From assembly GCA_017503645.1 (NCBI GenBank), contig JAFVSR010000062.1, positions 1,415-65,414 on the forward strand: a DNA stretch of 64,000 nt. The letters are read 5' to 3'. The DNA comes from Bacteroidaceae bacterium (GTDB lineage: Bacteria > Bacteroidota > Bacteroidia > Bacteroidales > Bacteroidaceae). The position numbers were made by a program, and so were the translations under genes. The notes beneath the pieces were generated by a model. The model did not search any database and was not told the origin of the DNA. It saw nothing but the letters and a program-made list of their open reading frames with translations. Positions 1,963 to 52,500 of the stretch are shown in pieces (positions within the stretch are counted from its first letter, which is position 1; every line of letters starts with the position of its first letter).

Positions 1963-2796
1963 ATGAATAAACTACTTGTACGCATTCTCACGGGTGCCGC
2001 ATTCGGCATTGTTCTGCTGGGTGCAATTCTTTACGGGCACACCTCGTTCGGTGCATTGTTCACCATTGTCGCTATGCTTGCTGTGAACGAGTTCAGCAAC
2101 CTCATACACGAGCATAAGAAAACCACGTTCAGCACATTGATTGCGGTTATAGGTGGAGGCTACCTCTTTTTTGCCTTCTATGCAAAAGCTCATTTAGGAG
2201 TGACCGACACCACCCTGCTCTTTGCGCCCTATGCATTGCTTATGGTATATATGTTCATTCGCAGGCTGTTCTGCACCGAGGGCAGTTCGCTCGACAATTA
2301 CGCCTATTTTGCCCTCACCCAGATATACGCCGCACTACCCTTTGCCCTGCTTAACATTTTATCGACAGTGGGAGCTTCGAGCGGCACATACAATTACGCT
2401 CTGCCGCTTGCCATATTCGTGTTCATCTGGTGCAACGACACCGGTGCATTCTTTGTGGGCTGTTCGATAGGCCGCCACAAGATGTGGGAGCGCGTATCGC
2501 CCAAAAAGACCTGGGAAGGCACCATCGGTGGTTTTGTGGTTGCTATGATTGCGGGATATGTGATGTCGCTCTTCTTCACACAGCTCAATGCTTGGCAGTG
2601 GATGGGAATGGCCGCCGTTGTGGCTGTTGCCGGAACATACGGCGACCTCATAGAGTCTTGTATGAAGCGCGAAATGGGAATCAAGGATTCAGGCAACATA
2701 CTGCCCGGACACGGCGGCATACTCGACCGCTTCGACAGCACACTGCTTGCCGCACCCTGCGCAATGATTTATTTGAGCCTTATCGGTGTTTTGTAA
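1963..2796 (+). CDS. cdsA: Phosphatidate cytidylyltransferase (CDP-diglyceride synthase)
   Basis: ATG at 1963 lies right after the ftsH stop; the ORF-track start at 1879 overlaps ftsH. Multi-TM protein with signature SCMKREMGIKDSGNILPGHGGILDRFDS. Confidence 0.9.
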   Translation: MNKLLVRILTGAAFGIVLLGAILYGHTSFGALFTIVAMLAVNEFSNLIHEHKKTTFSTLIAVIGGGYLFFAFYAKAHLGVTDTTLLFAPYALLMVYMFIRRLFCTEGSSLDNYAYFALTQIYAALPFALLNILSTVGASSGTYNYALPLAIFVFIWCNDTGAFFVGCSIGRHKMWERVSPKKTWEGTIGGFVVAMIAGYVMSLFFTQLNAWQWMGMAAVVAVAGTYGDLIESCMKREMGIKDSGNILPGHGGILDRFDSTLLAAPCAMIYLSLIGVL

Positions 2797-2826
2797 AAAA
2801 ACAGACGACAATATAAACATACACAC

Positions 2827-2862
2827 AAAAAAAATGATGAGCCGCGGCTCATCATTTTTTTT
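2827..2862. terminator. Bidirectional intrinsic terminator between convergent cdsA and lpxB
   Basis: A-run, then ATGATGAGCCGCGGCTCATCAT (perfect palindrome), then T-run. Overlaps the lpxB stop codon. Confidence 0.6.
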
Positions 2863-3991
2863 GTGTCAATAGCTGCACCATCTTTTCGGCAGCGTGCTGC
2901 GATGCACCCGGTGCGCCAAGAATATCTATCATATGGTCGTAGCCTGAAAGCATCATTTGCCGCTCGGACGAATCGGGCGGCAGCAATTTGCCAAGCTCGC
3001 GGGTAATATTTTCCACCGTCATATCGGCAGCCACAAGCTCGCGCACCACCTCGCGGTCGGCAATAAGGTTCACCAGCGATATGTATTTCACCTTCAGGAA
3101 CAGGTGTTTGAGTTTTGACACAAGCCAAGCGGCAGGGGTGCTGTAGCACACCACCTGCGGCACGCGGAACAGCGCCGTTTCAAGGGTGGCGGTGCCCGAT
3201 GTAACCAACGCTGCGTGGGCGTGCTGCAACAAGCGGTAGGTATCGCCGAAAACAATGGCTGCACCCTGTTGCAGATAGGGGGCATAGAGCTCCTTGTCTA
3301 TACCCGGGGCACCCGCTATCACAGGCCGGTAATCGGGGTATTTTGCAATAGCCTCGAGCATCTGCGGCAGATTATCCTTAATCTCGTGCTTGCGACTGCC
3401 GGCCAATAGCGCCACTATGGGTTTATCGCCCAAGCCGTTGGCGGCACGGAAGGCGGAATCATCGCGCTTGTTCACACGCAAATAGGCATCAACGGCATCA
3501 ACGCAGGGATTACCTATGTAGTTTATCTCGTAATTGTGCTTTTTGAAATACCCAACCTCGAATGGGAGAATTGAGAACATTGCATCCACATCGCGCTTTA
3601 TGTTTTTTATTCTACCCTCGCGCGAAGCCCATATTTTGGGAGCTATATAGTAATAGACGGGGATGGATGTGGTCTTGTGAATATCGCGTGCTATGGAGAG
3701 ATTAAAGCCAGGGTAATCTACAAGAATAAGCGCATCGGGCTGCCACTCCTTGATATCCTTTTTGCACATTGCCATATTGGCAAATATCGTGCGCAGGTTC
3801 ATAAGCACGGGAATAACCCCCATAAAAGCACAATCGCGGTAGTGCTTTACGCAGGTGCCACCCACTTGCGACATAAGGTCGCCACCGAAGAAACGGAAAT
3901 CGGCCTCTTTGTCGGCAGCCTTAAGAGCTTTCATCAGATTGGAGGCGTGCAGGTCGCCCGATGCCTCTCCCACTATAAGATAATATTTCAT
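2852..3991 (-). CDS. lpxB: Lipid-A-disaccharide synthase
   Basis: 379 aa. N-terminus YLIVGEASGDLHASNLMKAL is typical of LpxB (GT19). Conserved pairing with surE. Confidence 0.9.
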   Translation of the reverse strand: MKYYLIVGEASGDLHASNLMKALKAADKEADFRFFGGDLMSQVGGTCVKHYRDCAFMGVIPVLMNLRTIFANMAMCKKDIKEWQPDALILVDYPGFNLSIARDIHKTTSIPVYYYIAPKIWASREGRIKNIKRDVDAMFSILPFEVGYFKKHNYEINYIGNPCVDAVDAYLRVNKRDDSAFRAANGLGDKPIVALLAGSRKHEIKDNLPQMLEAIAKYPDYRPVIAGAPGIDKELYAPYLQQGAAIVFGDTYRLLQHAHAALVTSGTATLETALFRVPQVVCYSTPAAWLVSKLKHLFLKVKYISLVNLIADREVVRELVAADMTVENITRELGKLLPPDSSERQMMLSGYDHMIDILGAPGASQHAAEKMVQLLTQKK

Positions 3992-4894: not shown

Positions 4895-5070
4895 AACATT
4901 TTTTAACACATTTTATTACCACCTGTTTATAACTAAACGACAAATACAGAAAAGCAATCTTTTTTTTTCGTATCTTCGCAAAATAAATTGGGTATAAAAG
5001 ATGTTGTCGGGAAAAACCGCACGGAAGCCGACACACAGATTACCAATAGTTTAACACTTGAGAGCGAAGA
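4895..5070 (+). repeat. Copy 1 of a ~175-bp direct repeat (promoter plus leader), upstream of the 1008-aa gene
   Basis: Aligns by eye with 8342-8519; the core 4921-5046 vs 8368-8493 is nearly identical. Shared string: ..ACCTGTTTATAACTAAACG..AGCAATCTTTTTTTTTCGTATCTTCGCAAAATAAATTGGGTATAAAAGATGTTGTCG..CCGACACACAGATTACCAA. Confidence 0.8.
4971..4978 (+). promoter_or_regulatory. Putative -7 promoter box (TATCTTCG) inside repeat copy 1
   Basis: T-run followed by TATCTTCGCA, 116 nt upstream of the ATG at 5095. Confidence 0.45.
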
Positions 5071-5094
5071 ATATAATAGGGAAATAAGATACAT

Positions 5095-39649: not shown

Positions 39650-42600
39650 ATGAAACACAATTACATTAAAAACATGCTCACAGCCCTGCTATTGCTGTGC
39701 AGCACCGTGGCAAGTGCCCAAATAGTAGGCGTTGGTGATATAAGTTATAAAATCTTCAGAGAACCTACATCTACAGTAAGGGGTGCTGCATATGTTTATC
39801 GTTGTTCTATGGATGCTGTATCGCCTAAGATAGTAAGTAAGATTACTTATTACTCCAAAGAATATGATGTTACATATATTGGTGAAAGTGCATTCGCCGG
39901 TTGTACTAAAATGACGCACATTAGCATACCTAATCATATCAGCAGTATAAAAGATTTTGCTTTTAAGAATTGTACCAGTCTTAAAAGCATAGAAATAATT
40001 GATCTTGGAGCTGTGGGCAGTGGAGTGTTCTGTGGATGTTCAAGTCTCGAAAATATAACAGGATACGATAACGAGAAGTTTTCTTTTGATGGTAATTGTA
40101 TAGTAAATGTTAAGACCAATACCCTTTTGGTTGGATGTAAAAATACTGTAATTCCAAGTAGTGTAACAAGTATTGCTTCACTTGCATATGCAAATGGTCC
40201 TCAAAATGTAATAATTCCTAAACGCATTGTAAGTATAGGAGGTGGTGCCTTTGCTTGTTCGGGTGTGGGAAGTATAGTAGTTGAGGAAGGGCACCCTGTC
40301 TATGATAGCCGCAATGATTGCAATGCAGTAATACATACAGAAACGAACGAAATTGTTTCCGGATGCAATAATACTGTAATTCCTAACAGTGTTACTTCGA
40401 TTGCCAGTTATGCTTTCTACGATTGTGATGAGATTGAAAGTATTGAGATTCCTAAAGGTGTTACTTCAATTGGTTCTTCTGCTTTTGCTGCTTGTGGTAC
40501 GCTTAATAGTGTAATAATCCCATCTTCTGTTTTGTTTATGGGCAACAGCTCGCTGCCTAATAACCTTCCTAAGGTTATATTCTTGGGAAATACTCCGCCA
40601 AAAGAAAGTTCTTCAAGCAAAATATACAAGCCTTCAGCCAGTAGAATTTATGTATCAAACGCCTCTGTCTATGGCTATGGTATTGAGTATCCCCAATTAA
40701 GTTCTTTGTTTGAGGTAAATGGTGTAAAGTATGTTATTAAAAGCGCTGCAGACAGAACCTGCGATGTAATTGATTGTGCTTATGATGAAACTGCTGCCAA
40801 TATTGTAATTGACAGTGTGGTTACATACAGAAACATAAAATTGACTGTAAAGAATGTGGAACCTTATGCCTTATACAAAAACAATCATGTGAAGAGTGCT
40901 TTTGTGAATAACGATGGCTATGTAGGCAACAACGCTTTTTATCAGTGTACCGGAATTAATTCCGACGTTGTGGTGAAAAATAATGGTTATGTGGGTGCAC
41001 GCGCATTTGAAGGTTCCACACTCACCGGTTTGAATATTTCAAATAATGGTTATATAGGCAATTATGCCTTCTACGACTGCCCTAAGATGAATTCCGGGGT
41101 TACGGTAAGTAATAAGGGTTATGTAGGTGAATATGCATTCAGCAAATCTACGCTCACGGGTTTGCATGTTTCAAGTGCCGGTGAAATAAGGACATCGGCC
41201 TTCCAAGGGTGTACCGCTATTGTTGATGCCGATATTTCAAATACCGGTTATATAGGTACATCGGCTTTCCAAGGGTGCACCGCTTTGACAACGCTCAATT
41301 TTGGCAATAATGTGGGCGAGTTCAAAAATCAGGCATTCCGCGATTGTACATCATTGCCCAATATTGTAATCCCCGATTTTACACCTTCTGTTGGAGCTTC
41401 CTGTTTCCAAAATTGCAGTTCACTTGTGTCGGCCGTCGTTGGTGAATCTGTAAAAAGATTAGAGGAGAGCGTCTTTCAGAACTGTTCATCTTTGACCGAT
41501 GTTTCAATAGGTGTGAGTGTTGATTCTATCAAAGAAAAGGCATTCTCCGGTTGTACTTCGTTGCCCAAAATTAAATTGCCTCAGAATGTTATTGCAATTT
41601 CCGACTCTGTTTTTTATGCTTGCAACAGCCTTAAAACAGTAATATTCGATGATGGCATCACAAACGATTCTATATCCTTGGGTAGCAATGGTGAAAGTCC
41701 AATGTTCAGCAGCTGTCCGCTCGATTCGGTATATATAGGTAGGAAATTGTCATATAAACAAGGTTCGAACAGAGGATATTCGCCATTCTATGCAAATAAG
41801 CATTTAAGAAGCGTTACATATAATGATAATGAGGTGGCGGTTTACCCCAAGGAGTATATGAACTGCAGCAATTTGCAGAATGTGCTAATTGGAGCCGGAA
41901 TAAATGTTATTGATGATGAAGCCTTCCAAAACTGTACCTCGTTGCCAACAATTCTTATTCCAAACACAGTAAATAAGTCTTTGGGCGCAAGCTCTTTTAA
42001 AAACTGTTCAGCACTCTACAAAGCAGTTATAGGCGATAGTGTGGCATCTATTGGACAAAGTGCATTTGAAAGTTGTGTTTCTCTTGTCGATGTGAAGGTG
42101 GGTGCAAGAGTCTCCGATATATATGCATCAGCCTTTAAGAATTGTAGTTCGTTGCCGCAGATAACAATTCCGCAAGCAACCAATAGCATAAAAGACTATG
42201 TATTCGATGATTGTGCGAAGCTTAAATACTTCTTCTTGGAAGATGGCCCCAATACCATTTCTCTTGGAAAAAATGCCGCAAGCGCATCAACAACTGTCAT
42301 AGGTTCTGAATGTCCATTATTCTATGACTGCGCCCTCGATTCGATATACCTTGGCCGAAACCTCTCTTACAGCCTCAAATTGGAAGATGGTTATTCGCCC
42401 TTCTATTTCAATAAAACATTGCGTGCTGTGGTTATAGGCAACATGGTTGATTCTGTGTTTGAAAATGAATTCTATCAATGCCGCAAACTTGAATATGTTT
42501 CGGTGGGCGACGGTGTTACCGCGGTAGGTAACTGGGCATTCAGTAGTTGTATAAGCCTCGATCACTTCTCGTTCGGTACGGGCCTTGAAACAATAGGCAA

Positions 42601-44290
42601 AGAGGCTTTCAGCGACTGTACCTCGATTACTAAGATAGTAAGCAGCCGCAATGTTCCGCCTGTTTGTGGCGACCAGGCACTCGCCGATATAAATGTATGG
42701 GATTGTACGCTTTATGTTCCCGAGGATTATATTGAAACCTATTGGGCTGCCCCGCAATGGCAAGACTTCTTCTTTGTTGAAGGTGCCGAGTATAATCTAA
42801 AGTTTATTGTAGACGGTGCGGTTTACAATGAAAGCGTAGTAAAATACAATGCCGAGATTACACTACCTGCCGACCCCGTGAAGGAGGGCTACACATTCCT
42901 GGGCTGGTCTTTTGATGATGGCAAGAATGCATGGAACAGCATGGATATTGCAAGCAACGCCAACACAATGCTCTACACCAATGCCCCTTGCACAACAACT
43001 GCATACGGCGACCAATTTGTGAGCTGGAACGTGTTGTTCGATGGCGACGCCAATACAATATTCCACTCGGAGTATGGTAACAAACAAACAGCCGACAGCC
43101 TAGACCACTACTTGCGCGTAGATATGGGCGAAAGGAACAAGGTAGGCAAGTTTAGCTTTACCTATACCACACGCAACTTGGAGAACAACAATAACACGGC
43201 ACCAAAGACAATGGTTGTGGAAGGTTCTAATGTGGCCGACGGTGAATACACCGAGATAGCAACTCTTAGCAATCTGCCGGGAACAAAAGCAACTGTTTAT
43301 ACTTCGGGTGAGTTGGGTGATGACAACAATCCCTTCCGCTATATCCGTTACAGAGTAACAGAGACTCATAGTAATTACAAGGATAATAATCACCCTTACT
43401 TTTCAATTGCAGAGTTCGGCATGCCGTCTGCAAATCTCATTTACGTAATTCCTTCGAGAATGCCTGCCGATGACACTGAATTATATGCAATATTCAAAGC
43501 GAATGACTATACCGTCAAATACATTGTCAATGGCGAGGAGTATTACAGCGAGACCGTAGCTTGTGATGCCGAAATTGTACCCATTGAGGCTCCCGAAAAA
43601 GAAGGCTACACATTCAACCGTTGGGAGGGATTGCCTGAAACTATGCCTGCAGGTAATATTGAGGTTACAGCTGTTTACGACAAGATTCCAACAGAGATAA
43701 CAATAACCATAAACAAATATGGTTCTGCAACATTCTCATCCCCCTATGCGCTCGACTTCAGCGAAGTTAGCGGATTGACAGCATATGCAGCAACAGGATA
43801 TAACACCAATACAGGAATAATAACAATGACTATGGTGAACACGGCTAAAGAGGGTGTAGGCCTATTCTTGAAAGGTGCGCCAAATACCACTTACGTCGTT
43901 CCTATTATGGATGAAACAGGTGATAATACACAGAACCTCATGGTTGGAGTTTTGACAAAAACGACAGTTAATCAGAAAACAGACGATGGTATGTACGTAA
44001 ACTTTAAGTACACGGTAGCCGGCGGTAGCACAACACCAATGTTCTATCGTTACAGCGATGGTTCAAGCGTTTCTGCCGGCAAGGCATATTTGCAATTGCC
44101 TTTGAGTTGGTTGCCTTCAGATGCTTCATTCGCAATAGGTATAAGATTTGAAGATGGTTTCGCAACAGGTATCGACGAAGTGGAAGCCAAGGAAGATGAT
44201 GTTATCTATTACGACCTCAATGGTCGCCGTGTGCAAGAGCCTGTCAAAGGTGTCGTTTATATAGTAAATGGTAAAAAGGTAATATTTTAA
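39650..44290 (+). CDS. Giant BspA-type leucine-rich-repeat surface protein with Listeria-Bacteroides (Flg_new) repeats, F5/8-type-C (discoidin)-like domain and T9SS-type C-terminal tail
   Basis: 1546 aa. Signal peptide ..CSTVASAQ. About 1000 aa of LRR_5-type repeats. EGYTFLGWS / EGYTFNRWEG repeats. LRVDMG..FRYIRYRVTE discoidin-like segment. Tail DVIYYDLNGRRVQEPVKGVVYIVNGKKVIF. Confidence 0.9.
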   Translation: MKHNYIKNMLTALLLLCSTVASAQIVGVGDISYKIFREPTSTVRGAAYVYRCSMDAVSPKIVSKITYYSKEYDVTYIGESAFAGCTKMTHISIPNHISSIKDFAFKNCTSLKSIEIIDLGAVGSGVFCGCSSLENITGYDNEKFSFDGNCIVNVKTNTLLVGCKNTVIPSSVTSIASLAYANGPQNVIIPKRIVSIGGGAFACSGVGSIVVEEGHPVYDSRNDCNAVIHTETNEIVSGCNNTVIPNSVTSIASYAFYDCDEIESIEIPKGVTSIGSSAFAACGTLNSVIIPSSVLFMGNSSLPNNLPKVIFLGNTPPKESSSSKIYKPSASRIYVSNASVYGYGIEYPQLSSLFEVNGVKYVIKSAADRTCDVIDCAYDETAANIVIDSVVTYRNIKLTVKNVEPYALYKNNHVKSAFVNNDGYVGNNAFYQCTGINSDVVVKNNGYVGARAFEGSTLTGLNISNNGYIGNYAFYDCPKMNSGVTVSNKGYVGEYAFSKSTLTGLHVSSAGEIRTSAFQGCTAIVDADISNTGYIGTSAFQGCTALTTLNFGNNVGEFKNQAFRDCTSLPNIVIPDFTPSVGASCFQNCSSLVSAVVGESVKRLEESVFQNCSSLTDVSIGVSVDSIKEKAFSGCTSLPKIKLPQNVIAISDSVFYACNSLKTVIFDDGITNDSISLGSNGESPMFSSCPLDSVYIGRKLSYKQGSNRGYSPFYANKHLRSVTYNDNEVAVYPKEYMNCSNLQNVLIGAGINVIDDEAFQNCTSLPTILIPNTVNKSLGASSFKNCSALYKAVIGDSVASIGQSAFESCVSLVDVKVGARVSDIYASAFKNCSSLPQITIPQATNSIKDYVFDDCAKLKYFFLEDGPNTISLGKNAASASTTVIGSECPLFYDCALDSIYLGRNLSYSLKLEDGYSPFYFNKTLRAVVIGNMVDSVFENEFYQCRKLEYVSVGDGVTAVGNWAFSSCISLDHFSFGTGLETIGKEAFSDCTSITKIVSSRNVPPVCGDQALADINVWDCTLYVPEDYIETYWAAPQWQDFFFVEGAEYNLKFIVDGAVYNESVVKYNAEITLPADPVKEGYTFLGWSFDDGKNAWNSMDIASNANTMLYTNAPCTTTAYGDQFVSWNVLFDGDANTIFHSEYGNKQTADSLDHYLRVDMGERNKVGKFSFTYTTRNLENNNNTAPKTMVVEGSNVADGEYTEIATLSNLPGTKATVYTSGELGDDNNPFRYIRYRVTETHSNYKDNNHPYFSIAEFGMPSANLIYVIPSRMPADDTELYAIFKANDYTVKYIVNGEEYYSETVACDAEIVPIEAPEKEGYTFNRWEGLPETMPAGNIEVTAVYDKIPTEITITINKYGSATFSSPYALDFSEVSGLTAYAATGYNTNTGIITMTMVNTAKEGVGLFLKGAPNTTYVVPIMDETGDNTQNLMVGVLTKTTVNQKTDDGMYVNFKYTVAGGSTTPMFYRYSDGSSVSAGKAYLQLPLSWLPSDASFAIGIRFEDGFATGIDEVEAKEDDVIYYDLNGRRVQEPVKGVVYIVNGKKVIF
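41336..41827 (+). repeat. Internal ~165-aa LRR super-module, copy 1 (within the giant LRR gene)
   Basis: FRDCTSLPNIVIP...GYSPFYANKHLRSVTYND is collinear with copy 2 at the protein level. Confidence 0.6.
41924..42442 (+). repeat. Internal ~170-aa LRR super-module, copy 2
   Basis: FQNCTSLPTILIP...GYSPFYFNKTLRAVVIGN is collinear with copy 1. Confidence 0.6.
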
Positions 44291-44307
44291 ATAAAAAGTA
44301 ATAAATT

Positions 44308-44490
44308 ATGAAAAAGAACTATTTGGAACCCGAAACTGAGTATGTTAAATTGGTTGTAGGCCCCATAATGCAGATTGTTGAAGGCTCTACATGGACCGGT
44401 ACCGGAACAGGTGATGGTGAAGTAGGTGATGAAACCGAGGAGCTTTCCAATAGAAGAAATGGTGAATGGGGCAATCTTTGGAAAAAATAA
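44308..44490 (+). CDS. Small acidic hypothetical protein (60 aa), co-transcribed with the LRR gene
   Basis: ATG 17 nt after the LRR stop in an A-rich context. It lies upstream of the only terminator hairpin of the unit. I recognise no family, so coding status is uncertain. Confidence 0.45.
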   Translation: MKKNYLEPETEYVKLVVGPIMQIVEGSTWTGTGTGDGEVGDETEELSNRRNGEWGNLWKK

Positions 44491-44546: not shown

Positions 44547-44618
44547 GCATTAGCACCACTGCGCGCCACTATATACACTATTTTTTGTTAAAGGGGTACA
44601 ACCTTTCCGTTTTTTATG

Positions 44619-44626
44619 TATTTTCG
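44619..44626 (+). promoter_or_regulatory. Putative -7 promoter box (TATTTTCG) for uvrA
   Basis: TAnnTTCG variant 24 nt upstream of the ATG at 44651. It lies inside the longer TTG-initiated ORF, which argues for the 44651 start. Confidence 0.4.
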
Positions 44627-44650
44627 CGAGATATTATTAAAGAAGATGCA

Positions 44651-47434
44651 ATGGAGGGAAAATTCATTACAATAAAGGGCGCGCGTGTAAACAACCTGAA
44701 GAATGTGGATGTGGAGATACCACGCGGGAAGTTGGTGGTTATAACCGGCCTTTCGGGCTCGGGAAAATCCTCCCTTGCCTTCGATACACTATATGCCGAA
44801 GGACAGCGCCGCTATGTAGAGTCGCTCAGCTCATACGCCCGACAGTTTCTGGGGCAGATGAACAAGCCCGAGTGCGATTTCATAAAAGGGATACCCCCTG
44901 CCATTGCCATAGAGCAGAAGGTGAACAACCGCAACCCGCGCTCCACGGTGGGCACCAGCACCGAGATTTACGAATACCTGAAACTGCTGTATGCACGAGT
45001 GGGAAAAACCTACTCGCCCGTGAGTGGCAGACAGGTAAAGAAAGACAGCCCTGAGGACCTTGTTGCCTGTATGCAAAGCCGCCCCGATGGCACCCGTTTT
45101 ATGCTGCTTGCCCCCATACCCAAGCGAAAGGGGCGCGATATGCAGGAGCAGCTGTCGATATATTTGCAGCAGGGCTTCACACGCATATATCTTAACGGAG
45201 AGGTAGTGCGCATTGAGGAGTACACCCCCAAGAAAGGTGACAAGCCTGCGTTGCTCATAGACCGCCTCTCGGTTTCTAATTCACAAGAGACAATATCCCG
45301 TCTGCTCGACTCGGCCGAAACAGCCTTCTACGAAGGCAACGGCACCTGCATTCTGCAATTTGTAGGCGAGGAGGGGCAGCACACCTTCAGCACCCGTTTC
45401 GAGGCCGACGGCATTGAGTTCGAGGAGCCCACAGAGCAGCTCTTCTCGTTCAACTCGCCCATTGGCGCCTGCCCCGACTGCGAGGGATTCGGGCGCATTG
45501 TGGGAATAGACGAGAACCTTGTAGTGCCCAACAAATCGTTGAGCATATACGACGGCGCGGTATTCTGCTGGCGCGGCGAGAAGATGGGCGAGTGGAAAAA
45601 GGAGTTCTGCAAGCACGCCACAAAAGACGACTTCCCTATCTTTGAACCATACTACAACCTCACACAGGAACAAAAAGACTACCTATGGCACAAGGGGCCC
45701 TGGATTGAGGAGTACCAGGAGAGCATCTGCATTGACAATTTCTTCAAGATGGTGCAGGCCAACCAATACAAGATACAATACCGCGTGATGCTTGCACGCT
45801 ACCGCGGAAAGCCCATCTGCCCCACCTGCCACGGCACACGCCTCAAGAAAGAGGCCACATATGTGAAGGTGGGTGGCGCAAGCATCACCGAACTGATAGA
45901 GATGCCAATTGACCGTTTGAAGATATTCTTCGACAATCTGCAACTCGACGAGCAGGACAGCACCATTGCAGCGCGCATACTCACCGAGATAAAGAGCCGC
46001 ATAGAGTGCCTTTGCGATGTGGGGCTCAGCTATCTCACACTAAACCGCTTGAGCAACACCCTGTCAGGCGGAGAGAGCCAGCGCATAAACCTTGTAACCT
46101 CGCTTGGCAGCGCCCTTGTGGGCTCGCTGTATATACTCGACGAGCCCAGCATTGGCCTGCACAGCCGCGACACGGAACGCCTTATAAAAGTACTCTATCG
46201 CTTGCGCGACCTCGGTAACACCGTGGTGGTGGTGGAGCACGACGAGGAGATAATACGCGCAGCCGACTACATAATAGATGTGGGCCCAAAGGCAGGCTCA
46301 TACGGCGGTAACATTGTGTATAAAGGCAATATGAGCGACTTGGCCCCGGGCAGCAACAGCTACACTGTGAAATATCTGCTGGGCGAGGAGACCATAGACA
46401 CCCCCACCCACCGCCGCAAGTGGAACAACAGCATACTTATAAAAGGAGCCCGCGAGAACAACCTCAAAGGAATAGATGTAAAGATACCGCTTAACGTACT
46501 CACCGTGGTGAGCGGCGTAAGCGGCTCGGGCAAATCGACGCTTGTACGCGACATTCTCTACCGCTCACTAAAACGACACTTTGGCGAGGTGACCGACGCA
46601 CCCGGACAATGCGAAGCCGTTGAAGGCTCGCTGTCGCAGATTACAGGAGTGGAGTTTGTGGACCAGAACCCAATAGGAAAATCGTCGCGCTCGAACGCCG
46701 TGACATACCTTAAGGTATATGACGACATACGCCACCTGTTTGCACAGCAACCGCTTGCCAAGCAGTTGGGATTTGGTGCAGGCCATTTCTCGTTCAATGC
46801 CGACGGAGGCCGTTGCGAGGAGTGCAAGGGCGAGGGAGTGATAACCGTGTCTATGCAGTTTATGGCCGACCTGCAGCTGGTGTGCGAGGCCTGCCACGGC
46901 AAGCGTTTCAAGAAGGAGGTGCTCGATGTGAAATTCCAGGGCAAGAGCATACACGATATATTGGAAATGACCGTGGGCGATGCCATCAACTTTTTCCAGG
47001 AACACGGAGAGAAGCGCATTGCCGAAAACCTGCAACCGCTGCAGGATGTGGGGCTTGCCTACATAAAGCTGGGGCAGTCGTCATCTACCCTGTCGGGCGG
47101 AGAGAACCAGCGCGTGAAGCTCGCCTACTACCTGAGCCGACAAACCGACAAGCCCACCCTATTCATATTCGACGAGCCCACCACAGGCCTCCATTTCCAC
47201 GACATAAAGAAACTGCTAAACTCATTTGAGCGCCTCATAGCCCGCGGTCACTCGCTTGTGATAATAGAGCACAATATGGACATAATAAAATGTGCCGACC
47301 ACATAATAGACTTGGGCCCCGAGGGAGGCGAGAACGGTGGCGAGCTCATTGCAGCAGGCACCCCCGAGGAGGTTGCAGCCTGCCCTGCATCGCACACAGG
47401 GCAGTTCCTTAAAGAGAAACTAAAGCAAGATTAA
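44651..47434 (+). CDS. uvrA: Excinuclease ABC subunit A
   Basis: Start at [18 protein letters not shown]. Two ABC modules ([20 protein letters not shown]). CxxC zinc modules ([32 protein letters not shown]). Confidence 0.96.
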
Positions 47435-47590
47435 AAGAAGAACTAAGGAGGATTAAAGAGAACTAAAGAGAATTAAGGGGAATTAAAGGAAACTAAAGCA
47501 ACCTTAATAGCCCTTAGTAACCCTTAGTAGCCCTTAGTAGCCCTTAGTAACCCTTAGTAGCCCTTAATAACCCTTAATAATTATTAACTG
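47411..47590. repeat. Composite repeat module A: purine-rich 10-bp-phased arm plus 8 tandem CCCTTA(G/A)TA(A/G) decamers
   Basis: The arm 47411-47500 alternates ..AACTAAAG.. and ..ATTAAGG.. units. The decamers run in register from 47501 to 47580. The two arms are imperfect reverse complements, and the arm encodes the uvrA C-terminus. Confidence 0.85.
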
Positions 47591-47606
47591 TCATCACCAA
47601 CCAGCT

Positions 47607-48167
47607 ATGACCAGCCTTATACCCAACCGAGGGAACTACCGGAATTTACTTTGCTACCGTAAAGCAGAAACCATATACGACATTACATTTTTCTTTACCA
47701 AGCAATTTCTTAATAAAGGAGACCGCACTATTGACCAAATGGTACAAGCTGCCCGTAGCGGTAAGCAGAATATTGTAGAAGGTTACACTGCCGGTGCGAC
47801 ATCGGCAGAAACAGAACTAAAACTATTCAATGTTGCTAAAAGCAGCCTACAGGAACTGCTTATCGATTATGAAGATTATTTGCGGACACGTGGGCATAAA
47901 CGTTGGGCAGAAGATTCAGAACAGGCAAGATGCGCACAACAATTAGGTCGCGCACACAACGACACCGTTTTTTGGATGAATATTGTTAGTACTCGCGATG
48001 CTTGCACAATTGCAAACATTGCTATTATACTTATATACCAAGAAGATTATTTACTATACAAATATCTGCAGTCGGCAGGAAAACGATTTATAAACGAAGG
48101 AGGGTTTAGAGAAAAACTAACCCGCACCAGACTGCAACAACGCTCAAAGAAAACTAAAGAAGACTAA
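47607..48167 (+). CDS. Four-helix-bundle protein with four-helix-bundle suffix domain (23S-rRNA-IVS-protein/Avd-related family)
   Basis: GNYRNLLCYRKAETIYDITFFFTKQFL..GDRTIDQMVQAARSGKQNIVEG..ETELKLFNVAKSSLQELLIDYEDYLRTR and C-terminal ..TIANIAIILIYQEDYLLYKYL..EGGFREKLTRTRL match my memory of this family. Confidence 0.8.
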   Translation: MTSLIPNRGNYRNLLCYRKAETIYDITFFFTKQFLNKGDRTIDQMVQAARSGKQNIVEGYTAGATSAETELKLFNVAKSSLQELLIDYEDYLRTRGHKRWAEDSEQARCAQQLGRAHNDTVFWMNIVSTRDACTIANIAIILIYQEDYLLYKYLQSAGKRFINEGGFREKLTRTRLQQRSKKTKED

Positions 48168-48314
48168 AGCAATATTAAAAGAAGAACTAAAGAAGATTAA
48201 AGAGAACTAAAGAGAATTAAGGGGAATTAAAGCAACCTTAGTAGCCCTTAGTAACCCTTAGTAGCCCTTAGTAACCCTTAGTAGCCCTTAATAGCCCTTA
48301 ATAGCCCTTAGCAA
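48146..48314. repeat. Composite repeat module B (direct repeat of module A)
   Basis: Same purine arm (48146-48234) and 8 decamers (48235-48314). It has one fewer GAAACTAAAG unit than module A. It encodes the C-terminus of the cassette ORF and contains the chrA stop codon. Confidence 0.85.
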
Positions 48315-48898
48315 CCAACAATCCCATAAAAAACACCACCAAAAGCGCCGGCAGCAATAACAATAAGTATTGGACTAACCTTGTAGCGCAAGGCGGCCAC
48401 AAAAGCACCTACGAAAAGCAACACGCTCACCACAAACTGCAGCGTGGATTCCGTGGGGGAGCCGAAGTTCTCCACCGTCATAAGCTGCAGGGCAGCCGAG
48501 GCTATGAGGCCCACCACCGCAGGGCGCAATGCCTTGAAAACCGATTCAACCGAGGCACTCTTGCTGTATTTCATAAAGTAACGGCTTATGGTGAGCATAA
48601 TGGCAAACGAGGGGAGCATCACCGCAAGCGAGGCAAGCAGGGAACCTGCCACTGCCACCGCGGGCGAGCCCGTGGCATTCATTGCCGCGGTGTAACCAAC
48701 GTATGTAGCCGAGTTTATACCTATGGGGCCGGGTGTCATTTGGCTTATGGCCACAATGTCGGTAAATTCGGCACTTGTGAGCCAGGCGTGGCGTGTAACC
48801 ACCTCGCCCTGAATAACAGACAGCATACCATAGCCGCCACCAAAGGAGAAGAGGCCCACCTTGAGGAATGTGTAGAAGAGTTCTAACAGAATAGTCAT
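48308..48898 (-). CDS. Chromate transporter family protein (second half-size CHR subunit)
   Basis: 196 aa. FSFGGGYGMLSVIQGEVV motif, multi-TM. 4-nt overlap with the upstream partner. Confidence 0.85.
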   Translation of the reverse strand: MTILLELFYTFLKVGLFSFGGGYGMLSVIQGEVVTRHAWLTSAEFTDIVAISQMTPGPIGINSATYVGYTAAMNATGSPAVAVAGSLLASLAVMLPSFAIMLTISRYFMKYSKSASVESVFKALRPAVVGLIASAALQLMTVENFGSPTESTLQFVVSVLLFVGAFVAALRYKVSPILIVIAAGAFGGVFYGIVGC

Positions 48899-49440
48899 AC
48901 CCTACCCCCTTTCACGCGCCCCCATAGGTAACCACCTATGCCGGCTATAAGTATTATATATATAGGAGAAACGCCAAACGCCACAATGAGCAGGGCCGAC
49001 AGCAGGGGAATCCACACATTGGTCCACCCTATTTTAGCGCTCTTTGCCACGGAGAACACAGGTGATGCTATGAGCGCAACCACGGCAGGACGTATGCCCA
49101 TAAACACATTGTTCACCACCTCGTACTCGCGGAACCTGTTGAAGAAGAGCGCTATGAGCAGTATGATGACCACCGAGGGCAGTACATTGCCCAGGGCAGC
49201 AGCCACCGAACCGCGCACGCCACGCAGTTTATAACCGATGAATATGGACATATTCACGGCAAGCACACCCGGGGAGGATTGCGCAATGGCCAGTAAATCC
49301 ACAAAGTCGCGTTTTTCTATCCAACGATACCTATCGACCACCTCGCGCTCTATGAGCGGAATCATCACATAGCCGCCACCTATGGTAAAAAGCCCGAGTT
49401 TGAAGAATGTGGTAAACAGTTTTATTAACTCTACACCCAT
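48895..49440 (-). CDS. Chromate transporter family protein (first half-size CHR subunit)
   Basis: 181 aa. FTIGGGYVMIPLIEREVV motif, multi-TM. Confidence 0.85.
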   Translation of the reverse strand: MGVELIKLFTTFFKLGLFTIGGGYVMIPLIEREVVDRYRWIEKRDFVDLLAIAQSSPGVLAVNMSIFIGYKLRGVRGSVAAALGNVLPSVVIILLIALFFNRFREYEVVNNVFMGIRPAVVALIASPVFSVAKSAKIGWTNVWIPLLSALLIVAFGVSPIYIILIAGIGGYLWGRVKGGRV

Positions 49441-49453
49441 AATTTACAAACCA

Positions 49454-49486
49454 CAGAGGCTGTCGGCTAACGCCAAACAGCCTCTG
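49454..49486 (-). terminator. Probable terminator hairpin downstream of purL
   Basis: CAGAGGCTGT / ACAGCCTCTG 10-bp stem with a 13-nt loop. The U-tract on the minus strand is weak. Confidence 0.5.
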
Positions 49487-49509
49487 GAAAAGAGAATCGT
49501 TTATTACAA

Positions 49510-52500
49510 TTATTTTGTTTTTTCGGCAACCCAGTTGTATGCGTTGCGGAAAATCTCAATCCACGGAGTAACATCGTCGGCAATGTGGGCCGCAGGATAT
49601 GTGGCACACTGCCAGGGGAATATTGCACGCTCGGGGTGAGGCATCATAGCCACGTGACGACCGTCGGCGCTTGCAAGGGCAGCCACATTGTATGACGAGC
49701 CGTTGGGGTTACCCGGGTACTCGCCGTATGCATAACGTGCTACCACGTTGTACTTATCCTCGGCATATGGAAGGTCGAACTTACCCTCGCCGTGAGCAAC
49801 CCACACGCCCAAACGGCTGTTCGAAAGCGAGCCGAAGAGCACGCTGTTGTTCTCGGGCACATTCACACCCACAAACGACGATTCGAACTTATGCGAATTG
49901 TTGTGGCGCATATAGCCGCGCTGCTCGTGCTGCGGGTTTATGAGGTTGAGCTCCATCATCAGCTGGCAGCCGTTGCAGATACCGAGCGAGAGAGTATCCT
50001 CGCGGGCATAGAAGCGGTCGAGAGCAGCCTTGGCTGCGGGGTTGTAGAGGAAGCCGCCTGCCCAACCCTTGGCCGAGCCAAGCACGTCGGAGTTGGAGAA
50101 ACCACCGCAGAATACGATGAAGTTCACCTCGTCGAGAGTCTCGCGGCCGCTTATGAGGTCGGTCATTGTAACATCCTTCACATCGAACCCTGCAAGATAC
50201 ATTGCGTATGCCATTTCGCGCTCGCCATTGGTACCCTTCTCGCGGATGATTGCAGCACGCACACCCGATTTCTCGCGGCGGTCGGCCGACATTCCGTAGT
50301 CGGCAAGCATACCGTTGAACTGTGCGGGGAGGCGGTAACGCAAAGGTTGGTTCTTGTAATTCTTCAAGCGCTCGTCGGCACAGCCGTTGAAGCTCTGTTT
50401 GCGGTCCATAAGGTATGAACTGTCGTACCACACATCGCGGTAGTGGTCTATGTCGAACAGGCGTGTACGTTTATCCTTTGCCACGGCAATATGGCGTTTT
50501 GTTGTGGGAACACCAATCTTCACAAAGCATATACCGGCCTCGTCGAGTATTTGCTGCACGCGGCACTTATCTTTATCGGCCACCTGAATTACCAGCGCGG
50601 GGTTCTCGGCAAAGAGCAATTTCACTATATCTTTTTCGGCAACGGCGTTGAGGTCTATCTCCATACCCCCTGTGGTGTTGGCAAAACACATTTCGAGCAG
50701 TGTGGTTATGAGACCGCCGGCCGACACGTCGTGGCCTGCGAGTATGAGCCCCTGGTTCACCAGTTTCTGCACAGCATTGAATGCCTCGGCAAAATATTCG
50801 GGGTTCTGCACGGTGGGAACATCGTTACCCACACAACCCCTTGTCTGTGCAAAGGCCGAACCGCCCAAACGCAATTGGTCGAAGCTGAAGTCTATGTGAT
50901 AGAAGGCGCTCTTGGGCTCGTTAACCATAACGGGCGACACCACCTTGCGCACATCGCTCACCTCGCCGCCTGCACTCACGATAACGGTACCCGGGCTCAC
51001 CACCTTGGTGCCGTCGGGGTATTTCTGTGTCATCGACAATGAGTCCTTTCCTGTTGGAACGTTTATTTTGAGGTCGCAGCAGAAGCCCGACAGAGCCTCA
51101 ACGCCACGATAGAGGCGTGCGTCCTCACCCTCCTGTGAGCGGCAGGGCCACATCCAGTTGGCACTGAGCGAAATGCTCTTTATGCCATTTGTGAGGGGTG
51201 CAAGCACTATGTTTGTGAGTGCCTCGGAAACGGCGAGCACCGAACCCTTGGCAGGGTTGGCAAGCGCTGCCTGGGGGGCGTGACCTATTGAGGTGGCAAT
51301 ACCCTTGCGGCCACGGTAGTCGAGTGTAACCACACCGCAGTCGCTCAAAGGCAACTGAATCTCGCCCTGGCACTGCTGACGGGCAATCTTGCCTGTTACC
51401 GAACGGTCCACCTTGTTTGTGAGCCAGTCCTTGCAGGCTACAGCCTCCAAGCGCAGCACATCGGTAAGGTACTCCTCTATGTTGTTTGCATCATATTCCA
51501 CATCCTTGTAGTTGCGCACCACGGTTTTGTCCACCATATATGTTTTGGGCGACGAGCCAAACATCTGGCTCACCGAGAGGTCGAAGGGGCGTTTTCCGTC
51601 GGCCTGCTCAAAGGCAAAGCGGGCATCGCCTGTTGTTTCGCCCACAACGTACATAGGAGCACGCTCGCGGTCGGCCACACGTTTCACATACTCTATGGCA
51701 TCCTCCTTAATGAGCAAGCCCATACGCTCCTGCGACTCGTTGGCAATAATCTCTTTTGCCGACAGGGTTTTGTCGCCCACGGGCAGTGCCGACATATCTA
51801 TGAGACCGCCGCACTCCTCCACAAGCTCCGACAAGCAGTTCACGTGGCCTGCCGAGCCGTGGTCGTGGATAGATACCACAGGGTTGGTATCGTCCTCGCA
51901 CAATGCGCGCACCACATTGTAGGCACGTTTCTGCATCTCGGCATTGGCACGCTGCACGGCATTAAGCTCTATACCCGATGAGTAACGGCCTGTATCCACC
52001 GACGACACCGAACCGCCACCAAGGCCGATGCGGTAGTTATCGCCACCCATCACAATAACCTTGTTACCCTTTTCGGGAGCGCCCTTGAGGCAGTCGCGAC
52101 GTGTGCCGTAGCCCACACCGCCGGCAAGCATAATAACCTTGTCGTAGCCATAGACCTCGTTGTTCTCCTTGTGCTCGAATGTGAGCACCGAACCGCAAAT
52201 GAGCGGCTGACCGAACTTGTTACCGAAATCCGAAGCACCATTAGATGCCTTTATGAGAATCTGCTCGGGAGTCTGATAGAGCCACTTGCGCACGGGGAGA
52301 ATATCCTCCCACTTGCGGTCGTCATATGTGCGGGGATAAGAGGTCATATAAACTGCTGTTCCCGCAATGGGCCAGGAGCCTTTGCCACCACCCATACGGT
52401 CGCGAATCTCGCCACCTGTACCTGTAGATGCACCGTTGAAGGGCTCCACTGTTGTGGGGAAGTTATGCGTTTCGGCCTTCAGTGAGATAACGGTTTCTAT

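Follow-up and report, generated by a model that had tools for sequence, protein, structure and literature searches.

Background

Open reading frames (ORFs) carried by the intervening sequences (IVSs) of 23S rRNA genes, for example in Leptospira and Coxiella, define the protein family PF05635/TIGR02436 and are the source of the superfamily's Pfam name; the superfamily takes in these ORFs plus thousands of 'four helix bundle' genes. We know of no function assigned to it outside the Avd proteins of diversity-generating retroelements (DGRs), and Avd and such relatives bind nucleic acid. Variable-number tandem repeats (VNTRs), or minisatellites, are found in bacteria as well, the heptamer arrays (STRR) of cyanobacteria being one example, and to our knowledge ordinary VNTRs have no tie to one protein family. 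Here we describe a locus at which these two kinds of sequence meet: in a stretch of Bacteroidaceae DNA (contig JAFVSR010000062.1; hereafter the window, 64,000 nucleotides in full), a gene of the four-helix-bundle superfamily lies between uvrA and a chrA-like gene and is bracketed on both sides by arrays of 10-bp units.

Our preferred reading, to which we give a probability of about 0.45, is that a TIGR04258 gene and the hypervariable 10-bp arrays that bracket it, which would act as IVS-like arms, together form a small accessory cassette of the chromosome. A strong, period-specific tie between the TIGR04258 family and the arrays that flank its genes is shown across several phyla.

The cassette in the window

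Gene order, taken from the sequence read over 47200-48600 and from the ORF listing, is uvrA (44585-47434, + strand, by translation and profile match), a 172-bp spacer, a 186-amino-acid (aa) ORF (47607-48167, + strand; NCBI MBR2416260.1), a 140-bp spacer, two half genes of the chromate-transporter family (chrA; 48308-48898 and 48895-49440, - strand, convergent with the ORF) and purL, so that uvrA anchors the cassette on the left and the chrA halves on the right. A preliminary description of this stretch had proposed that the ORF stands between two direct-repeat copies of a composite module, the left copy with an extra unit and each copy a purine-rich arm of 10-bp units abutting CCCTTA decamers. 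This holds in every part: the modules span 47409-47582 and 48146-48314 and are ~95% identical (94.8% over 135 aligned nt; 87% ungapped over 154 nt by a repeat finder), the difference between them including one additional GAAACTAAAG unit in the left copy. The left purine arm (47409-47500, + strand) consists of ~9 phased units of the form RAWYTAARGR, with periods of 10, 20 and 30 reported by Tandem Repeats Finder (TRF), and holds the last codons of uvrA with its stop codon at 47432-47434; it is followed by a pyrimidine arm of ~7.5 CCCTTARTAR decamers (47501-47582, + strand). In the right module the first units of the purine arm (48146-48234, + strand) encode the C-terminal tail and stop codon of the ORF, and the last of the ~7.6 decamers of the pyrimidine arm (48235-48314, + strand) contributes the stop codon of the chrA-like gene (48308-48310, - strand). 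The cores ACTAAGG and CCTTAGT are indeed reverse complements.

TRF places the period-10 arrays at 47434-47498 (purine units), 47502-47576 (7.5 copies of CCTTAGTAGC, 89% matches), 48146-48232 and 48236-48311 (7.6 copies, 90% matches) and finds no comparable array in the rest of the window. The two-unit pattern CCCTTAGTARCCCTTAGTA, with up to 3 mismatches allowed, occurs 14 times in the 64 kb against 0.03 expected, and all occurrences fall inside the two modules. UvrA ends in ..FLKEKLKQD* and the ORF in ..RSKKTKED*, both within purine units, which bears out the earlier statement that the purine arm encodes their last codons; all three stop codons, that of the chrA-like gene included, lie within array units, and the UvrA of the window is longer by an array-encoded KQD than that of relatives with an empty site (..FLKEKL*). 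Because the same arrays turn up in more than 10 assemblies made independently, and a finished Prevotella nigrescens replicon has an array of this type beside a family gene (TTCCTAGGA x 4, ~45 nt downstream of the gene), they are not an assembly artefact. The repeat-flanked helix-bundle gene is confirmed as a real feature.

By resemblance alone, the purine units look Shine-Dalgarno-like (TAAGGAGG) and the pyrimidine units anti-Shine-Dalgarno-like.

The encoded protein and its family

The assignment of the 186-aa ORF to the four-helix-bundle plus suffix proteins is upheld by its scores of 61.8 bits on TIGR04258 (4helix_suffix; cut-off 40) and 26.6 bits on TIGR02436 (cut-off 24), which make it a member of both families; on PF05635 (23S_rRNA_IVP) it reaches 26.3 bits and stays below the gathering cut-off of 33.8. 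An identical protein in Bacteroidaceae metagenome-assembled genomes carries the NCBI name 'four helix bundle suffix domain-containing protein'. An AlphaFold model built with 16 homologues (pLDDT 88.7) is all-helical, with extra C-terminal 'suffix' helices, and its best fold matches in the Protein Data Bank (PDB) by Foldseek are Xcc0516 (2gsc), BT_0352 (2rld, 'S23 ribosomal protein family') and the DGR Avd (8ub7_B, probability 0.99), with E-values that are weak (0.04-0.5) despite the high probability. Since 2gsc and 2rld are PF05635-type structures, the fold agrees with that family despite the sub-threshold Pfam score. A PDB sequence search with the family profile gave nothing at E <= 1, and the protein matched no PADLOC family at E <= 1 and no PHROGs family at E <= 0.1; profile searches found neither a nuclease nor a recombinase domain in it.

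The 16 aligned homologues are 59-89% identical and share an invariant block around DRT-DQM-QAARS-KQNI-EG; across phyla, TIGR04258-type proteins are 50-60% identical. Clustered at 50% identity, the family has ~3,000 representatives (E <= 1e-3), and it has at least 580 genomic copies among the species representatives of GTDB, mostly in Bacteroidales, with further copies in Verrucomicrobiota, Planctomycetota, Lentisphaerales, Kiritimatiellae, Nitrospirota and Blastocatellia. We reject carriage by phages or plasmids, given one match among viral contigs and one among plasmids, the latter a very large (568-kb) Prevotella replicon.

Arrays of period 9-10 beside family genes

Eighty family loci from other genomes, the best-scoring ones and not a random sample, were compared with other spacers in the same genomes, an array being counted when TRF reported a period of 7-12 and at least 2.8 copies within 300 bp of the ORF; the intergenic controls rest on simple, crude ORF calling, and ORF starts are inferred. 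Such an array lies beside the family ORF at 61 of the 80 loci (76%) against 24 of 135 other spacers (18%; Fisher p = 1e-17), so that other family genes do carry flanks of the kind first seen in the window. Array density is 3.65 per kb of intergenic DNA beside the ORF and 0.99 elsewhere, and arrays cover 18.8% of ORF-adjacent intergenic bases against 3.8% elsewhere. The periods differ as sharply: among 108 adjacent arrays, 88 have period 9 and 13 period 10 (101 together, 94%), whereas 34 of the 79 arrays elsewhere (43%) have period 9-10, the commonest there being period 7 (29) and period 9 (29). Unit sequences are specific to lineages (TTAAGGTCG; CCTCCCAGT; AGCCCTAGT, 19.8 copies, Lentisphaerales; GACCTATAG, 14.4 copies, Blastocatellia), and array-bearing loci span Lentisphaerales, Blastocatellia, Planctomycetota and Verrucomicrobiota. 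It is the period and the position that are conserved, not a sequence motif. The downstream array often starts at or ahead of the ORF stop codon, as in the window.

Copies of one family protein, P0012 (75% identical), are flanked left and right by tandem composite modules, at a different site. This gene at L014 (4833-5448; also L016, L145 and L148) and a 5S/23S rRNA operon are on opposite strands, and the ~290 bp between the gene and the 3' end of the operon hold composite modules and a terminator hairpin. CCCTTA-type arrays precede 5S genes in two metagenome contigs. Among 20 loci searched with Rfam, 5S and 23S rRNA appeared beside L014 only, and 17 other loci near contig ends had no adjoining rRNA; adjacency to rRNA is therefore not general.

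Several other surroundings were seen in passing. At L033 and L036 (ORF at ~2700-3540) the gene apparently follows the 3' end of an HsdM-like (type I restriction-modification methylase) gene and precedes the start of a truncated HsdS-like one, with a period-9 array (CTAAAGACC or CTAACGACC) directly upstream, and at L085 (1246-2763) an HsdM-like ORF lies upstream of the family gene; these Hsd assignments were made by eye from translations. Arrays of period 7 or 8 occur in spacers that adjoin no family ORF (L042 1726-1816, L085 1013-1079, L050 393-649, L029 6028-6108), and some of them form exact inverted pairs (TTTCAGT/CTGAAAA, TAACGAAA/TTCGTTAC). Our impression is that 24 of 135 other spacers with short-period arrays is high for bacteria.

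Complementary arms and their possible role

Upstream and downstream arrays of family ORFs are frequently complementary. When the 100 nt upstream of the ORF were paired with the 100 nt downstream and compared with arm-wise shuffles, z was <= -2 at 25 of 76 loci and <= -3 at 17 of 76, with duplex energies down to -85 kcal/mol and stems that often abut start or stop codons (L100, L068, L082, L063, L078). Between the units of neighbouring arrays, the match of one to the reverse complement of the other is 0.69, compared with 0.55 in controls. At L018, where the ORF occupies the same uvrA-chrA site as in the window, the left and right arms form a duplex at z -3.5.

In the accessory-cassette reading that we prefer, purine-type arms would base-pair with pyrimidine-type arms, be it in the transcript or in single-stranded DNA, and would do so locally or over the length of the ORF; in the latter case an imperfect long stem would surround the ORF, much as superfamily ORFs are enclosed in the IVSs of 23S rRNA. 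Because the window ORF has no promoter motif of its own (the Bacteroidetes -7 motif TAnnTTTG is absent from 45644-51208, and hence from the region upstream of the ORF), we infer that it is transcribed by read-through from uvrA, which lies on the same strand; a scan for sigma-70 promoters and intrinsic terminators was uninformative, and the sigma-70 model does not apply to Bacteroidota promoters. Around the ORF the arms may signal processing, termination or insulation, and each of the three abutting genes would also find stop codons there in every frame. That the period keeps so strictly to 9-10 nt suggests a reader of the arrays, which may be the encoded protein or a partner.

Several results weigh against this reading. 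Each module of the window folds no better than its dinucleotide shuffles (z +0.44 and +1.23), contrary to the expectation that they would exceed shuffled controls; the whole 921 nt reaches z -1.79, and the minimum-free-energy fold of the region favours local hairpins. Duplexes between the window arms are weakly better than arm-wise shuffles (z -0.7 to -2.1: local left -1.7, local right -0.7, outer long-range -2.1, inner long-range -1.1), and complementarity between arms is only ~70-80% per unit. Roughly half of the family loci have no significant upstream-downstream pairing. The modules have no canonical intrinsic terminator, and Rfam at its gathering thresholds has no match in the window. Many family members have a TAnnTTTG motif of their own directly upstream, so read-through expression is not general. 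CCCTTA-type decamer arrays form more than 120 stretches in metagenomes from many environments, many of them composites of a purine and a pyrimidine arm, and they are common with no gene of the family nearby: it was found at 1 of the 80 such loci that were fetched. Finally, most of the family loci, and the controls too, come from metagenome-assembled genomes, and assembly of such genomes can collapse arrays. The suggestion that the ORF sits in a stem, as IVS ORFs do, stands for L018 and for between a quarter and a third of the loci of the family, whereas in the window itself folds and duplexes are weak. Of the two grounds that had been named for abandoning the earlier proposal, the first applies, since the relative L018 has the ORF at this site with flanks that are not duplicated; the second applies in part, since the window modules fold like shuffles but decamer arrays of the module type occur elsewhere.

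A broader version of the accessory-cassette reading would make the locus one instance of a conserved, multi-phylum gene-repeat system, an 'IVS outside rRNA' in which the gene sits in an array stem, is processed from read-through transcripts and encodes a protein that recognises or maintains the arrays. Recognition of the arrays by the protein would explain a period that stays fixed despite unrelated units. We regard this broader version as doubtful in its full extent.

The period specificity also suits a rather unlikely alternative, a partnership of the REPIN-RAYT kind in which the arrays would be binding sites or substrates of the four-helix-bundle protein, which would act in trans on similar arrays at other places in the genome; the gene would sit amid its targets, and RNA stems would be incidental. 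It would account for the 94% of ORF-adjacent arrays with period 9-10 against 43% elsewhere, and for the observation that arrays lying farther off at a locus are more similar to its ORF-adjacent units than units from other loci are (0.69 vs 0.645, p = 0.005; e.g. L035, L044, L046). The strong conservation of the protein, with its invariant block, and its structural match to Avd, one of the relatives established as binding nucleic acid, also fit a protein of this kind. However, the protein keeps 50-60% identity across phyla while the units differ completely, it has neither a detected nuclease nor a detected recombinase domain, the arrays are confined to the cassette within the 64-kb window, and 79 of the 80 metagenomic CCCTTA-array loci have no family gene on the contig.

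Hypervariability and homogenisation of the arrays

The identical protein is found on many contigs of the same species, invariably between uvrA and chrA. Across 11 assemblies with the identical protein, the uvrA-ORF spacer measures 102, 112, 152, 162, 172 or 182 bp and the ORF-chrA spacer 110-190 bp, and the differences in spacer length are multiples of 10 bp with a single exception of 1 bp. Between strains the pyrimidine decamers number from one to ~10 per array, and changes in the purine arm are smaller. Since the decamer count shifts in 10-bp steps between strains with an identical protein, the arrays are shown to be VNTRs that expand and contract by unit steps. Left and right modules inside one genome are 92-95% identical, whereas orthologous modules of different species are 83-86% identical, and because the identity within a genome exceeds that between species this indicates that the modules have been homogenised, by gene conversion or by recent duplication. 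Inversion of the ORF between the inverted arms was considered and rejected: 24 protein-carrying contigs were read, the ORF points the same way in each of the 10 places shown, and nothing speaks for such an event.

Free drift of copy number across strains is what one would expect if the arrays were neutral, slippage-prone minisatellites serving as terminator or spacer DNA and the gene a frequent passenger of variable intergenic islets, with no functional link between them. The shuffle-like folding of the window arrays, the short-period arrays in 18% of other spacers of these genomes, the abundance of arrays that have no gene beside them, and the empty sites with a terminator hairpin at the same place (described below) all agree with such neutrality. 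Chance co-occurrence nevertheless leaves unexplained an occupancy of 76% against 18%, the restriction to period 9-10, the recurrence in several phyla with unrelated units and the excess of upstream-downstream complementarity, and we consider the neutral explanation improbable, to about the same degree as a partnership in trans.

The uvrA-chrA site in relatives and transfer between lineages

We located uvrA-chrA junctions in related species through homologues of the neighbouring ChrA half protein. Junctions L101-L103 and L011-L013 hold the ORF with composite modules on both sides. At L018-L020 the ORF is flanked by 37-bp spacers with purine units on the left side only and pyrimidine units on the right side only; the ORF can thus occupy this site without duplicated flanks, which refutes the view that the duplicated composite module is obligatory. 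At L104-L106 and L230 there is an ordinary palindromic terminator with no ORF and no arrays, and UvrA ends in ..FLKEKL* or ..KEKQLS*; L231/L232 hold an unrelated small gene, and L107-L109 hold unrelated, hairpin-type repeats of a different kind. A neighbour-joining tree of UvrA resolves three sister pairs in which the site is filled in one partner and not in the other, and in the closest such pair (L101/L230) the UvrA proteins are 98.6% identical, L230 having the plain palindromic terminator. The ancestral uvrA-module-chrA site that the preliminary description had postulated was not found: none of the six ORF-less sites examined has a lone module, all of them holding terminator hairpins, another gene or unrelated hairpin repeats. 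As a solo module that lacks the ORF was not seen at any site, what is gained and lost is shown to be the complete cassette, the arrays together with the ORF, which replaces an ordinary bidirectional terminator between uvrA and chrA.

Two further observations concern these junctions. In some lineages (L101-L103, 4501-5115, P0125-P0131) the ChrA half protein is 8 residues longer (204 vs 196 aa), and the added codons (ACCACCAGCAAACCACCAGC..) are part of a further short repeat that is duplicated also upstream of the cassette ORF. In L015 (~4990-5073) a 5S rRNA gene is apparently split by a hairpin-rich insert of ~70 nt (..GCAGTGCGATACCGCAGCACTGCTTGCGACGACGGGAGCTTTAGCTCCCCAAAGGAGTGCC..), which in reverse complement is also present in the uvrA-chrA spacer of L107-L109 (L107 5082-5369) and looks like a second dispersed family of small repeats in these Bacteroidales.

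Comparison of L011 with L101 shows a recent transfer of the cassette between lineages, apparently by recombination through homology of the host genes uvrA and chrA. The uvrA DNA of the two is 76-88% identical (~82%), whereas identity is 97-100%, array lengths excepted, over a stretch that starts in the last ~45 nt of uvrA, takes in both modules and the ORF, and ends in a short 3' remnant of chrA. In L011 (4780-5010) the cassette is followed by this chrA remnant, to which another uvrA 3' end is fused; this is the resident end, displaced downstream of the insert, and it is similar to the uvrA allele of the sister L231. An LRR_5 gene, a 60-aa ORF and the resident chrA come next. Such a footprint points to a donor fragment integrated through uvrA homology, by a Campbell-like event or by homology-facilitated illegitimate recombination. 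There is no integrase among the neighbours within 6 kb of the cassette, and because of this, together with the uvrA-homology footprint in L011, we conclude that the cassette is laterally mobile but passively so, without an element-encoded enzyme. The earlier proposal of a mobile cassette accordingly survives as regards gain, loss and lateral exchange, and fails as regards a dedicated mobility enzyme, of which there is no sign; the transfer looks like ordinary recombination by way of the uvrA and chrA flanks.

In the window, unlike L011, the leucine-rich-repeat (LRR) gene and the 60-aa ORF lie upstream of uvrA (39650-44290 and 44308-44490). That upstream region (39650-44490) varies across strains (L003, L006-L010), and its content is a PDDEXK_4 gene in some, an OmpA-family gene in others, and in others again the gene for a 1546-aa BspA-like LRR protein with the conserved 60-aa ORF.

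A mobile cassette with site-specific entry, of an integron-like or Campbell type, in which a circle of 'ORF + module' enters a solo module and leaves direct repeats, would fit the whole-module direct repeats around the ORF in the window, L011 and L101, the homogenised modules and the doubly flanked P0012 copies at their other site, but is very unlikely in view of the missing solo module among the six ORF-less relatives, the unduplicated flanks of L018, a transfer trace in L011 that runs through uvrA homology and not through the module, the absence of an integrase or recombinase within 6 kb and of GTT (with which the attC R' core begins) from the modules, and a family almost absent from viral contigs and plasmids.

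Comparison with known systems and significance

Both the protein family and tandem repeats are already known; the pairing of the gene with the arrays is not described in the searchable literature. Our literature search returned no report of the gene-array association, of its period specificity, of a stem-enclosed architecture outside rRNA or of the transfer footprint. A large CRISPR-discovery study counts '23S rRNA IVP' among the genes for which it gives a new association with CRISPR arrays or adaptation modules (PMC10910872), and short-period arrays flanking such genes might there have been scored as CRISPR-like repeats. A CRISPR array is itself rejected for the window, where contiguous 10-mers have no spacers, as against repeats of ~24-48 bp with unique spacers. 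An integron cassette is rejected as well: attC has core sites of the form R'' RYYYAAC ... R' GTTRRRY and goes with IntI or a cassette array, whereas both modules lack the trinucleotide GTT and the neighbours within 6 kb include no integrase.

If the broader gene-repeat system were true, it would give the four-helix-bundle/23S-IVS protein superfamily its first testable role and would define a new class of repeat-associated genes. The arrays are in any case markers for strain typing, and they disrupt assembly from short reads: many contigs stop at an array, and in L012 a scaffold gap of Ns lies inside one array, which is long enough to cause it.

With the Avd proteins of DGRs the ORF shares the four-helix-bundle fold (8ub7_B). 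It differs in its extra C-terminal suffix helices, and neither a reverse transcriptase nor template or variable repeats lie nearby. We reject membership in a DGR: the neighbours are an LRR protein, uvrA, the two chrA halves and purL, none with an RVT Pfam domain.

With the REP/BIME and REPIN-RAYT systems of proteobacteria the locus has in common short, imperfectly palindromic intergenic repeats just past stop codons, between convergent genes, and a single-copy gene flanked on both sides by genome-specific repeats. However, the flanked gene here encodes an all-helical protein of 186 aa and not an HUH/Y1 transposase, and the repeats are head-to-tail units of 9-10 bp, not palindromes of 20-40 bp, and are not dispersed in the 64-kb window. 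An all-helical bundle, and a module pattern found only at the cassette in 64 kb, lead us to reject membership in either group.

With bacterial VNTRs or minisatellites the likeness lies in the repeats. The arrays are intergenic, consist of head-to-tail units and are polymorphic in copy number between strains in unit steps, and by these properties they are VNTRs. They differ from ordinary VNTRs in forming pairs of purine and pyrimidine arms that are partly complementary and in being tied to one protein family with a period of 9-10, a tie for which our literature search returned no parallel among ordinary VNTRs.

A further comparison is with the IVSs of 23S rRNA genes, whose stems are excised by RNase III. 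Both involve the same protein superfamily, both are distributed patchily between close relatives, and complementary flanks enclose the ORF in L018 and at 17-25 of 76 loci of the family, as they do in an IVS. By location the window element is not an IVS and is rejected as such: it lies between uvrA and chrA and not inside a helix of a 23S rRNA gene, and Rfam finds no rRNA in the window. The arms differ too, being hypervariable tandem arrays of 9-10-bp units instead of a unique inverted repeat, and in the window each side carries both arm types. The tie of TIGR04258 genes to arrays of period 9-10, which often enclose the gene in a stem, links the chromosomal members of the superfamily to those borne by rRNA.

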